Part shown: positions 14,493 through 16,499 of the stretch, in pieces | Layout of the letters: every line of letters starts with the position of its first letter | Position numbering within the stretch: position 1 is the first letter of the stretch | Source: Oscillospiraceae bacterium | GTDB lineage: Bacteria > Bacillota > Clostridia > Oscillospirales > SIG530 | DNA: 64,000 bases | Assembly (NCBI GenBank): GCA_015067075.1 | Contig: SVND01000004.1 | Coordinates: 2 to 64,001 of the forward strand | Reading direction: 5' to 3' | Notes under the pieces: generated by a model | Seen by the model: only the letters and a program-made list of their open reading frames with translations | Databases searched by the model: none | What the model was told of the DNA's origin: nothing | Made by a program: the position numbers and the translations under genes

Positions 14493-14580
14493 ACCGATCC
14501 GCCTCCTTTTTTTTGCTTTTCTTTTTATTTTACCATGAATTGCGTCCGCTTGCAAGTGTTTTCAGTTTATGTTTTGTTTT

Positions 14581-14654
14581 TAGTGATGTATTTGCGTAGG
14601 CAAACATTATTTAAAAAAGTCCAATTTGCCTGGAAGACAAATGTTCTGTTTTTG
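14581..14654. repeat. left (decayed) copy of a ~74-bp direct repeat flanking the HNH islet
   Basis: TAGTGATGTATTTGCGTAGGCAAACATTATTTAAAAAAGTCCAATTTG... matches 16425-16472 at about 43 of 48 positions. The hairpin arms of the right copy are degenerate here. Confidence 0.75.
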
Positions 14655-14707
14655 TTATGGTTGCTTGCTTAACGAAATTTAAGCTTATATACTATTTCTA
14701 TTAAATT

Positions 14708-16345
14708 CTAATTCGCCATTTTATTACTCTTTGCTCTATTGCATTTCCAACATAATGTTTGAAGGTTATCTTCTATTGTACAGCCACCTTTTGATACAGG
14801 CACAATATGGTCTATCTCCAATAGTAAGTTTGGTTCTGCATGAATAGAATTTCCACAAATACGACATGTGAAATCGTCGCGTTTTTTGACAAATTCACGA
14901 AGTTTATTTGTCATTAACGCTCTTTGTTCTTTTGTAAAATCACTTGCGGTAAATTTCTCCTCTAACGCTTTAATTAACTCTACTATAGATTCCTCGGTCA
15001 TTGGTACAGTAAATTTTCTCTTTGCCTTTCCGCCACTAGAAGTATAGGAAAATGTATATTCTACCACAAGTACACTTTCATCAATATTCGCAAACCCTAA
15101 TCTTGAATAGAAACCTGCTTCATCTTCCTCCATAACATAATCCGGAACATCATTAATATACTGTTGATACTCTTTTTTGTAGTTTTCAATAATTTCCTTT
15201 GCTTCTTTTAATGTAGCAAGTTCTTCTATAAGTAAATGCAGTTTTTGTATTTGTTCAGGATATATGTTTTTGTTAGGGTAAAAGTTTTTTATTACATAAT
15301 CAAGCGGATTATTTTCCGCGCTTGCGAATACGGTAGCTGACACTTCTGCCATAAAAGGATTAATTGTCTTTTTGTACGGACGAATATACTGGTATTCATC
15401 TTCATTAATTGTTTCGTTTCGAACAACTCTTGTTCCAAAAAGTTGTGAAATGGATTCCACTTTCTCTGTTATGTATTCATTAAATTCTCTTTGCGTACTC
15501 ATTAACACTTCGCAGGTTTCTTTTATTTTAAAAAATGCAGGAGAATCATAGTAATCAAGAATTCTTTGATTACTATCAACAATCTTCGTTATTTCTTGCT
15601 CAATATGCGCTACAAATTTATTAATAATCTCCCATTCTTCGCTATTTATATCCTTTATTTTTTTGATGCTATTAACCGTTCTATCAAACAACTGCATAAT
15701 TAAATTATCCAATTGTTCTACGCTACCTTTTATAAACAAAAGTTTTCTGTTCTCATTTGCATAATCTATAATCTTGTTTACATTCTCATAATATTTATGT
15801 TGTTTTTGATTCAATGCTTCTTTTTCTTGTTCTTTCAGGTACTTATTTAATTCTCCTTTCCCCATAAGTAATGCTGGGTCTTCATCAAACTTATCTATGT
15901 CATATTGGCTTAATCTGATTATTCTTGTACCCAAGTTATTTCCAGCAGAGGATATATACGTAACACAAATTCTGTAAGCCTTTGCATTTCTAATAGTTGT
16001 ATTAATATTTTCTGCAAGTTTATTATATTGCGAATGCCCCTTATATTCATTATTGCTGAGAAAATGGCTTAAAATATTTGCAACTTCATTTTTTCTTTGT
16101 ATAATTTTCTTCGCCTGAACAAGCTTTTCTTTGTTTTCTTTAAAAAATTTTATGTCGTCGTATTTCTCCAACGCTTGACGACTTTTTACAATTACATTCG
16201 CATCAATATCAGAAACAATATTCCAACTTGAAAAACCTAATTTTCTTAACACTTCAGCGTCTAATTCTTTGTACTTCTTTTCGTTAATGGATTTAGTTAC
16301 TACAATTATCACAACAACTACAGCTATAATCACTAATAACGGCAT
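14708..16345 (-). CDS. membrane-anchored protein with a C-terminal HNH endonuclease domain (middle region unassigned)
   Basis: 545 aa from ATG 16345, which lies 7 nt after AGGAGG. N-terminal TM helix PLLVIIAVVVVIIVV, then about 440 aa of K/E/N-rich, helical-looking sequence. C-terminus CRICG..EIDHIVPVSKGGCTIEDNLQTLCWKCNRAKSNK has the CxxC..CxxC pairs and HNH residues. The gene is very AT-rich. Confidence 0.8.
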   Translation of the reverse strand: MPLLVIIAVVVVIIVVTKSINEKKYKELDAEVLRKLGFSSWNIVSDIDANVIVKSRQALEKYDDIKFFKENKEKLVQAKKIIQRKNEVANILSHFLSNNEYKGHSQYNKLAENINTTIRNAKAYRICVTYISSAGNNLGTRIIRLSQYDIDKFDEDPALLMGKGELNKYLKEQEKEALNQKQHKYYENVNKIIDYANENRKLLFIKGSVEQLDNLIMQLFDRTVNSIKKIKDINSEEWEIINKFVAHIEQEITKIVDSNQRILDYYDSPAFFKIKETCEVLMSTQREFNEYITEKVESISQLFGTRVVRNETINEDEYQYIRPYKKTINPFMAEVSATVFASAENNPLDYVIKNFYPNKNIYPEQIQKLHLLIEELATLKEAKEIIENYKKEYQQYINDVPDYVMEEDEAGFYSRLGFANIDESVLVVEYTFSYTSSGGKAKRKFTVPMTEESIVELIKALEEKFTASDFTKEQRALMTNKLREFVKKRDDFTCRICGNSIHAEPNLLLEIDHIVPVSKGGCTIEDNLQTLCWKCNRAKSNKMAN

Positions 16346-16424
16346 AGTTATCCTCCTTTTTAAACGCATTTTCATAAAAAACATTACGCTATTAATCTAC
16401 ACAATTTTCAAAAATCGCTCTTTT

Positions 16425-16498
16425 CAGTGATGCATTTGCGAATGCAAACATTATTCAAAAAAGTCCAATTTGTCTTCCCGACAAATTGGACTTTTTTG
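16425..16498. repeat. right copy of the direct repeat flanking the HNH islet (contains the tRNA-Ala terminator)
   Basis: CAGTGATGCATTTGCGAATGCAAACATTATTCAAAAAAGTCCAATTTG... See the left copy at 14581-14654. Confidence 0.75.
16457..16497 (-). terminator. intrinsic terminator just downstream of tRNA-Ala
   Basis: Perfect 18-bp arms AAAAAAGTCCAATTTGTC / GACAAATTGGACTTTTTT with a 5-nt loop, and A/T runs on both sides. It begins 2 nt after the tRNA 3' end. Confidence 0.75.
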
Positions 16499-16499
16499 C

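Follow-up and report, generated by a model that had tools for sequence, protein, structure and literature searches.

A strain-variable one-gene islet between tRNA-Ala and obg of an Oscillospiraceae bacterium encodes a predicted membrane-anchored HNH nuclease, a candidate for the exclusion of incoming DNA

The window analysed here is a stretch of 64,000 nucleotides (nt) of contig SVND01000004.1 (positions 2 to 64,001, forward strand) from the Oscillospiraceae bacterium assembly GCA_015067075.1. Between the tRNA-Ala(GGC) gene and obg it contains a short segment, called the islet below, in which only one intact gene is found, and this gene encodes a putative HNH nuclease of 545 amino acids (aa) with an N-terminal membrane anchor. 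On the minus strand the order is tRNA-Ala(GGC), terminator, the 545-aa open reading frame (ORF), obg and mutS2. The features of the locus are the following.

14563-16499, no strand: strain-variable segment (islet) of low guanine-plus-cytosine (G+C) content, 1937 bp, delimited by the junctions of the empty allele L093, the ends of contig L180 and the G+C profile.
16500-16575, minus strand: tRNA-Ala(GGC), from ARAGORN and Rfam; its 3' end is the left junction of the variable segment.
16421-16498, minus strand: gene-proximal (upstream) repeat copy, which holds the intact tRNA-Ala terminator at 16456-16498.
16351-16356, minus strand: ribosome-binding site AGGAGG, read from the sequence, 7 nt upstream of the ATG.
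14708-16345, minus strand: coding sequence of the 545-aa membrane-anchored HNH nuclease, from the ORF list; the stop codon TAG is at 14708-14710.
14577-14654, minus strand: downstream repeat copy with a decayed hairpin, 85% identical to the upstream copy over a 66-nt core.
13221-14492, minus strand: obg, a housekeeping gene downstream of the HNH gene, with a TTG start at 14492.

The G+C content, taken in 300-nt windows, is 0.26-0.35 over 14500-16450, against 0.47-0.54 in obg and mutS2 and 0.53-0.58 past 16900; the bin 15001-16000, with 0.308, is the lowest among the 64 one-kb bins, the window mean being 0.455. The AT-richness reported in the initial annotation, which had been made from the letters alone, is therefore real, although the 55-57% G+C given there for obg was somewhat high, the flanks lying at about 50%. 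The open frame on the minus strand covers 14708-16384 and includes an upstream in-frame ATG at 16384. The true start is the ATG at 16345, giving 545 aa, because AGGAGG precedes this codon and the homologues begin at the corresponding MP.. methionine. Four integrase queries detected no integrase-like gene in the window, and no noncoding RNA was found in the islet besides tRNA-Ala.

Alleles of the site were located by exact look-up of the Obg protein in public assemblies, which gave three alleles within one species. An exact look-up of the 1141-aa neighbouring protein found no record. The allele of the window is carried by L094 and also by L178-L183. The empty allele, L093, comes from the same species, its Obg protein being identical and its DNA 99% identical to those of the window; in it the 3' end of tRNA-Ala (100% identical) is followed by an 84-nt spacer and then by the obg upstream region from 14562 on, with the junctions exactly at 16499/16500 and 14562/14563. 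The spacer contains a different terminator (-20.4 kcal/mol) and is unrelated to the islet; its local alignment score against the repeats was 16, while shuffled sequences averaged 13.9 and reached up to 20, which amounts to no similarity. Since the empty allele resembles neither repeat copy, both copies belong to the variable segment. In the third allele, L092, a 126-aa gene of the 23S_rRNA_IVP family (PF05635), with a G+C content of 0.35 against 0.50, lies directly upstream of obg and has the same right-hand junction. The 70 nt upstream of obg (14493-14562) are conserved across all three alleles. The islet is foreign in origin and is present or absent between strains of the species. It had been expected that a comparison of the obg to tRNA-Ala interval would reveal empty sites with a single repeat copy; presence and absence were indeed found, but the empty site of L093 has no repeat copy.

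The Logan contig L180 begins exactly at 16528 and ends at 14533, so that it takes in both junctions and about 30 nt beyond. With the k=31 of Logan assemblies, an end about k-1 bases beyond each junction is what is expected of a branching assembly graph with the alleles coexisting in the sample. Further alleles were sought in metagenome contigs by exact 30-mer matching, with 0 matches. Eighty obg loci of related taxa showed neither the HNH gene nor the tRNA-Ala/obg synteny, and they are uninformative on the site because they are only 62-66% identical and lack that synteny. The product of the PF05635 gene (L092:26-406) is a 23S_rRNA_IVP/four-helix-bundle protein, and the last 11 codons of the gene overlap the conserved region upstream of obg. 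An IVP-like neighbour of the HNH gene is also seen in L003, at 1047-1403 behind 23S-5S-tRNA-Asn, and in L055, at about 10316-10645, and sites of the L092, L003 and L055 type look like hotspots that gather small one-gene cassettes of low G+C content.

The gene is bracketed by an imperfect direct repeat of 78 nt (14577-14654 and 16421-16498), whose core, 14577-14642 against 16421-16486, shows 85% identity over 66 nt, while alignable similarity extends to 14654 and 16498. The upstream copy comprises a perfect hairpin at 16456-16498 (-27.1 kcal/mol, z -7.8), and the hairpin of the downstream copy (-7.4 kcal/mol, z -1.0) is no better than shuffles. The bracketing repeats, the terminator hairpin beside the tRNA and its decayed counterpart had all been recognized in the initial annotation, where the arms of the perfect hairpin were given as 18 bp instead of 19 bp and its distance from tRNA-Ala(GGC) as 2 nt instead of 1 nt. 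The worry that the repeats might be generic terminator copies is answered by the occurrence of the motif only at the two flanks of the gene within the 64 kb, and that explanation was rejected. The same applies to insertion into the terminator with a simple target-site duplication, as first proposed, in view of the empty allele with its different terminator and neither repeat copy. A tRNA-targeting integrative island was also rejected, no integrase having been found in the window and the repeat, which starts past the CCA of tRNA-Ala, excluding the tRNA 3' end.

The encoded protein can be divided into four parts.

16292-16342, minus strand: N-terminal transmembrane (TM) helix, aa 2-18, within helix 2-36 of the AlphaFold2 (AF2) model, with 0 lysine or arginine (K/R) residues before it and 4 after it.
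15560-16288, minus strand: N-terminal extension specific to the family, aa 20-262, built of an alpha/beta subdomain and long helices, without counterpart in the short prophage family described below.
14909-15559, minus strand: conserved 'module X', aa 263-479, common to the short TM-HNH family, with no Pfam, PDB or BFVD relative.
14711-14908, minus strand: HNH (beta-beta-alpha-Me) domain with a Cys4 zinc site, assigned from PF01844, invariant columns and structural matches.

The AF2 model, obtained with 66 homologues, has a mean predicted local distance difference test (pLDDT) score of 81.9. It starts with a helix of aa 2-36, the first 17 residues of which are purely hydrophobic, continues with the alpha/beta subdomain and long helices to about aa 262, followed by helices and a beta-hairpin over aa 263-479, and places the HNH domain last. 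PF01844 matches aa 494-542 with an E-value of 5e-13, and C494, C497, D512-H513, N527, C532, C535 and N536 are invariant in the 66 relatives. The traits of the HNH superfamily, namely the D-H general base, the structural Asn and the metal-binding Asn/His motif, are present, and so is the CxxC pair of the McrA/EndoVII-like subgroup; weak Endonuclease_7 matches were given by 45 of the 66 members. The ORF list, the hydrophobic helix and the PF01844 match thus bear out the single 545-aa gene with an N-terminal anchor and a C-terminal HNH domain that had been read at the outset.

On average 0.65 K/R residues precede the TM helix and 3.7 follow it, and 60 of the 66 relatives have more after it; relatives with longer N-termini possess two TMs. 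The anchor of the window protein is predicted to be N-out/C-in, and for both the one- and the two-TM forms the body is predicted to be cytoplasmic. Mean pairwise identity climbs along the protein, from 0.19 in the TM region to 0.44 in the extension, 0.72 in module X and 0.76 in the HNH domain. Pfam, NCBIfam, PADLOC and PHROGs match the HNH domain alone, Pfam being blank for the body in all 66 members. A Foldseek search of the first AlphaFold model against PDB and BFVD for fold relatives of the body returned only the HNH domain, as did the sequence profile search of PDB; the nearest structures to this part are McrA, Gme HNH, Cas9 HNH and IscB. When aa 14-480 were searched against 1.84 billion representative proteins, 284 matches were obtained, all apparently of the same family. 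The membrane-proximal part of the family is modular: in P0121 (667 aa) the first subdomain of the N-terminal extension is tandemly duplicated, and P0124 (748 aa) has, in place of the anchor, an N-terminal stretch of about 370 unrelated residues in which no TM is obvious.

The match of residues 263-545 to short TM-HNH proteins extends over all of the cytoplasmic portion of the latter (hhalign probability 100%, E 8e-67, 283 columns, 34% identity), and tblastn gave 32-40% identity over the same residues at about 79 IMG/VR loci. According to the IMG/VR and plasmid scans these short proteins have 310-340 aa and one or two N-terminal TMs. As judged from the alignment, the window protein is the short-family module with a 240-aa extension inserted after the anchor. 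The body, previously described as not assignable to any family, indeed matches no named family, but aa 263-479 belong to a large one borne by prophages and plasmids. The short family forms at least 4670 clusters when grouped at 90% identity, and 136 IMG/VR contigs carry a member. Among the named sources of its proteins are Anaerostipes sp. Marseille-Q3525 and a metagenome-assembled genome of Allisonella histaminiformans. Its AlphaFold model has a pLDDT of 80.3, with PDB matches to HNH domains only.

The short-family example P0395 comes from a Gemmiger prophage for which the contig collection has 2264 indexed blocks; the order there is HTH_3 repressor, small ORF, TM-HNH gene, DUF7537, integrase and then host genes, and this operon is divergent from the RecT/YqaJ early genes on the other strand. 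Integrase adjacency was also seen by PHROGs in phage contigs L101 and L144, and an integrase-like gene was found not more than 1.5 kb downstream at 25 of 80 viral loci with two integrase queries only. Among cultured phages a near-full-length short-family gene was found only in the Mycobacterium prophage prophiGD13-2, where gp29 is transcribed against its neighbours. Plasmids carry homologues as well, such as WP_050512947 of Pseudomonas savastanoi pPsv_PVFi1 and WP_181718255 of the Psychrobacter plasmid pA18BP2 (L175:1406-3070), the latter consisting of module X and HNH with three C-terminal Ltp repeats (PF07553). In P0425, a short-family protein of 410 aa, a TM2 domain (PF05154) is fused. As a separate observation, the Ltp superinfection-exclusion repeats of WP_181718255 follow a Pro-rich repeat linker, and its annotated start appears to cut off an N-terminal anchor.

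The distribution of the long form was determined with one genome per species. Relatives occur in 292 of 185,579 species genomes (0.16%), and full-length relatives at 73-85% identity are numerous. Most hosts are gut and rumen Clostridia (Lachnospiraceae, Oscillospiraceae, Acutalibacteraceae, Faecalibacterium, Clostridium, Sarcina), others being Selenomonadales, Cetobacterium and Acholeplasmatales; a few bins bear other phylum labels, some of them short contigs that may be binning errors. Cultured strains that carry the long form include Merdimonas faecis BR31, Clostridium collagenovorans DSM 3089, Lawsonibacter sp. LCP25S3_E2, Oribacterium sp. NK2B42, Lachnospiraceae bacterium C10 and Cetobacterium sp. 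2A. The G+C content of the gene averages 0.35 (0.23-0.46) and that of the flanks 0.47 (0.27-0.64). It is below that of the flanks at 71 of 73 other loci, which together with the empty allele upholds the original proposal of a horizontally acquired, strain-variable segment, and a slope of 0.32 indicates partial amelioration. DNA homology between loci is confined to about 70 nt of promoter plus the coding sequence, and about 70 distinct neighbourhoods were counted among 79 loci, one group of four loci sharing a neighbourhood. An all-against-all comparison of 457 neighbouring ORFs from the 79 loci revealed no conserved partner gene, in agreement with the lack of an integrase or partner stated at the start; the largest neighbour cluster was a CI-like HTH_3 regulator at 8 loci, and an adjacent tyrosine integrase occurs at 2 long-form loci. 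In Clostridium collagenovorans the HNH gene lies between guaA and pgi, next to an IS3 remnant, and in Merdimonas faecis it adjoins a MobA/MobL (relaxase) gene. Many metagenome contigs of 1.8-2.3 kb hold this gene alone. A tRNA gene is found within 1 kb at 6 of 75 other loci, a mild enrichment only, and tRNA-specific integration was rejected as a general rule. In L001 a 28-codon ORF with a strong ribosome-binding site (3094-3180), just downstream of the HNH gene and inside the repeat-bracketed segment, encodes a small hydrophobic peptide, MYITLVELLMILSLLIALAEYFNNRRDK, reminiscent of type I toxins or holin-like peptides.

For flanking repeats, the 700 nt upstream of the gene were compared with the 700 nt downstream at 71 loci, with mismatched locus pairs as the control (maximum 26.3 bits). 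Direct repeats above this maximum (19-104 nt, 38-153 bits) were present at 12 loci and, with L001 and the window, at 14, while 58 of the 71 loci were without a repeat. The repeats are 19-125 bp long and locus-specific, share no end motif, stand at ragged distances from the ORF and include a terminator hairpin in about half of the cases. Perfect (100%) repeats occur in L044 (57 bp), L072 (35 bp) and L001 (49 bp), the last consisting of the final 8 nt of tRNA-Met plus its terminator, with no integrase seen in 8.9 kb around the gene. A 77-bp perfect repeat in L017 begins at base 1 of a SPAdes contig, is possibly an assembly-graph effect and was not relied on. In L029 the repeat corresponds to the last 125 nt of a SpoIVB-like gene; both copies encode the same 40 residues, and 20 of their 22 differences are at third codon positions (p = 3e-8), from which it follows that they evolved under protein-level selection in different lineages. 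By this criterion the L029 copies are orthologous alleles, apparently joined by additive recombination, and no transposition footprint. The L081 repeat is formed by the opening 51 nt of the gene downstream; its copies differ at 4 positions, 3 of them synonymously.

A transposable element or insertion sequence was rejected in the absence of terminal inverted repeats, conserved ends, a fixed duplication length and a transposase; no conserved cassette ends were found. A free-standing homing endonuclease with one conserved target was rejected in view of the roughly 70 neighbourhoods among the 79 loci. The simplest account of the repeats is additive integration of donor DNA made up of the cassette and an orthologous flank, either by a single crossover of a circularised fragment or by homology-facilitated illegitimate recombination. 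The cassette would then not be mobile by itself; it may spread by ordinary horizontal transfer and become fixed through additive homologous or illegitimate recombination, which would leave locus-specific direct repeats. At the window the homologous anchor was probably provided by the conserved tRNA-Ala gene, since the junction falls exactly at the end of the tRNA. The perfect repeats of L044, L072 and L001 are compatible with a mechanism of duplication in situ, and room is left for it. A more general caution is that direct repeats flanking an islet need not be target-site duplications.

Two further elements were observed near such repeats. Between tRNA-Met and the HNH cassette of L001 (584-986) there are two tandem units with a spacing of 229 nt, 93% identical over 174 nt, each ending in a sequence like a tRNA 3' end, ...TCCACCAAGA, followed by a terminator hairpin; they gave no Rfam match and could be footprints of repeated additive integrations, or a small RNA. 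The unrelated loci L044 (664-720) and L026 (about 1740-1800) resemble each other in that the HNH promoter is separated from the upstream repeat copy by a GC-rich structured sequence of some 50 nt, GGCTCCCyTGTGTAAruGGAGCTG...CTGAGGGrTTG, possibly a repeat of gut Clostridia resembling repetitive extragenic palindromes or miniature inverted-repeat transposable elements (REP/MITE-like).

Among described systems the closest in layout is SNIPE, the surface-associated nuclease inhibiting phage entry (Saxton et al., Nature 2026, PMC13190303), in which a TM with an external N-terminus is followed by a DUF4041 domain and a GIY-YIG nuclease (PMC13190303; review PMC12904381). Its N-terminal region is the least conserved, DUF4041 intermediate and the nuclease the most conserved, and SNIPE deprived of the TM is toxic to the host through its nuclease (PMC13190303). 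SNIPE and the islet protein each act without a partner protein's being needed for the layout: one polypeptide is anchored by a single N-terminal pass, with the N-terminus periplasmic or external and the body cytoplasmic (both as predicted for the islet protein). Each is patchily distributed, and in both a variable N-terminal region precedes a conserved middle part and a most-conserved C-terminal nuclease. The differences lie in the nuclease, GIY-YIG in SNIPE and HNH with a Cys4 site here; in the middle domain, no DUF4041 being detected at E<=1 in the window protein or the 66 members; in the additional 240-aa extension; and in the hosts, which are gut Clostridia and their prophages. On these comparisons the islet family appears to be an analogue of SNIPE and not a homologue.

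Exclusion genes of the ltp and sie type occupy the position between repressor and integrase in prophages. The short relatives have this operon position and membrane association in common with Ltp of the Streptococcus thermophilus phage TP-J34 and Sie2009 of lactococcal phages, and one short-family homologue is physically fused to Ltp repeats. The Ltp and Sie proteins differ in that they are small, contain no nuclease domain and are thought to block injection sterically, whereas the islet family has HNH; moreover, they reside in prophages and the window copy lies outside one. Ltp is described in PMC3952083 as the prototype of the superinfection-exclusion lipoproteins found in temperate S. thermophilus phages. 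The short TM-HNH proteins are true homologues, but without the extension of aa 20-262 and often with two TMs. Septu PtuB, Zorya ZorE and McrA share the HNH fold and motif over only about 60-90 residues; the best PADLOC matches were REase_II (3e-10) and PtuB (1e-8), with a partial match to ZorE, and no PtuA, ZorABCD or methylase partner was found among the neighbours of the 79 loci. Homing HNH genes resemble the present one as single, horizontally mobile HNH genes between conserved genes, but do not have its membrane anchor and 480-aa non-nuclease body, while the islet family shows no common target and no association with introns, inteins or phage core genes. No description of a membrane-anchored HNH counterpart was found in literature searches.

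It is tempting to suggest, and with moderate confidence we favour, that the islet protein is an exclusion or defence nuclease which acts on incoming DNA at the membrane in a SNIPE-like manner. This reading is based on the architecture, the conservation gradient, the predicted topology, the relatives in lysogeny operons, the Ltp and TM2 fusions, the patchy foreign distribution and the invariant catalytic and zinc residues. The islet could be viewed as a self-contained expression cassette for a single-protein barrier to incoming DNA. The N-terminal helix would tether the protein to the cytoplasmic membrane, leaving about 525 residues in the cytoplasm; the variable extension (aa 20-262) may connect the protein, as adaptor or sensor, with a phage entry apparatus or with a partner in the host membrane; and binding and cleavage of DNA on entry would fall to module X (aa 263-479) together with the Cys4 HNH domain, confinement to the membrane keeping the nuclease off the chromosome. 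The stand-alone defence nuclease of the initial annotation thus gains architecture, predicted topology and prophage lysogeny-module relatives, all of them indirect support. Several points weigh against such a role. The topology rests solely on the positive-inside rule, the lysogeny-module evidence comes from the short family and not from the 545-aa form, and the window copy, unlike that operon, has no integrase or repressor neighbour and lies among housekeeping genes with no defence island around it. The promoter of the window copy departs from the consensus. Module X and the extension match no known function in sequence or fold searches, no PADLOC model matches past the HNH domain, and, DUF4041 and GIY-YIG both being absent, common descent with SNIPE has nothing to support it. 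Homing, packaging and repair are further roles of HNH domains, and the support for the proposed function consists of architecture, homology and context.

The same architecture evidence would suit an abortive-infection or toxic effector, a nuclease held inactive at the membrane and released or activated on infection, which would degrade the host chromosome along with phage DNA and kill the cell. A release mechanism is conceivable from the host toxicity of SNIPE without its TM (PMC13190303), and many HNH defence effectors are non-specific, partial PADLOC matches to PtuB and ZorE being at hand. We nevertheless consider it unlikely, in that no protease, sensor partner or antitoxin is nearby at the 79 loci, no cleavable linker is suggested by the sequence, and genes at such a position of lysogeny operons are classically exclusion functions sparing the lysogen. 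A cellular function, as a housekeeping or competence-like DNA-uptake nuclease, or a role as a secreted or surface toxin nuclease, is the least probable of the readings weighed. Membrane-anchored nucleases exist in competence systems, and a start at the ATG at 16384 would add five K/R residues and favour N-in/C-out; but the homologues start at the MP.. methionine after a strong ribosome-binding site, the positive-inside rule points to a cytoplasmic body, and zinc sites of the Cys4 type are typically found in cytoplasmic proteins. The gene has a foreign G+C content and a patchy occurrence, being absent from a strain of the same species and from the 80 obg loci of related taxa, and no competence or secretion genes are adjacent.

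The flanking repeats admit another interpretation, in which the HNH domain of a selfish one-gene element nicks or cuts the chromosome, preferentially near terminator hairpins, and so promotes its own insertion, the 19-125-bp duplications being the footprint. The repeats above the control maximum at 12 of 71 loci, L001 and the window, three of them perfect, would fit, and so would the terminator hairpin in about half of the repeats, the approximately 70 contexts and the many single-gene contigs of 1.8-2.3 kb. These observations are offset by the lack of terminal inverted repeats, end motifs or a fixed duplication length, the ragged distances between ORF and repeat, and the end of inter-locus nucleotide homology at promoter and coding sequence. 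The L029 copies are orthologous alleles on the third-position test, L081 is similar, the empty allele at the window lacks both copies, 58 of 71 loci are repeat-free, and a membrane anchor is unexpected in a homing enzyme; the interpretation is accordingly held to be improbable. Still a little less credence is given to a new kind of one-gene element in which the membrane-tethered HNH domain would introduce staggered nicks close to terminator hairpins, and capture of the cassette at these points would entail long, variable duplications of 19-125 bp and need no transposase or integrase. It is entertained because donor-flank recombination does not account in full for the recurrent locus-specific repeats, of which three are perfect, and the first duplication at each site needs a cause.

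If the exclusion or defence reading is correct, membrane-tethered entry-point nucleases would not be peculiar to SNIPE but convergent, here with an unrelated sensor domain and an HNH nuclease, and the islet family would represent a second, independent system for discriminating self from incoming DNA by location, as well as a testable new player in the phage-host dynamics of the gut microbiome. The family is very common in gut Firmicutes and prophages, yet its members, those of the short form included, are annotated just as 'HNH endonuclease'. Elsewhere in the window, the second-lowest G+C content (0.35-0.37) belongs to 42453-43748, which encodes a 431-aa multi-pass membrane protein resembling an MBOAT/AlgI-type O-acyltransferase; membrane proteins are often AT-rich, and this gene is probably an ordinary one.

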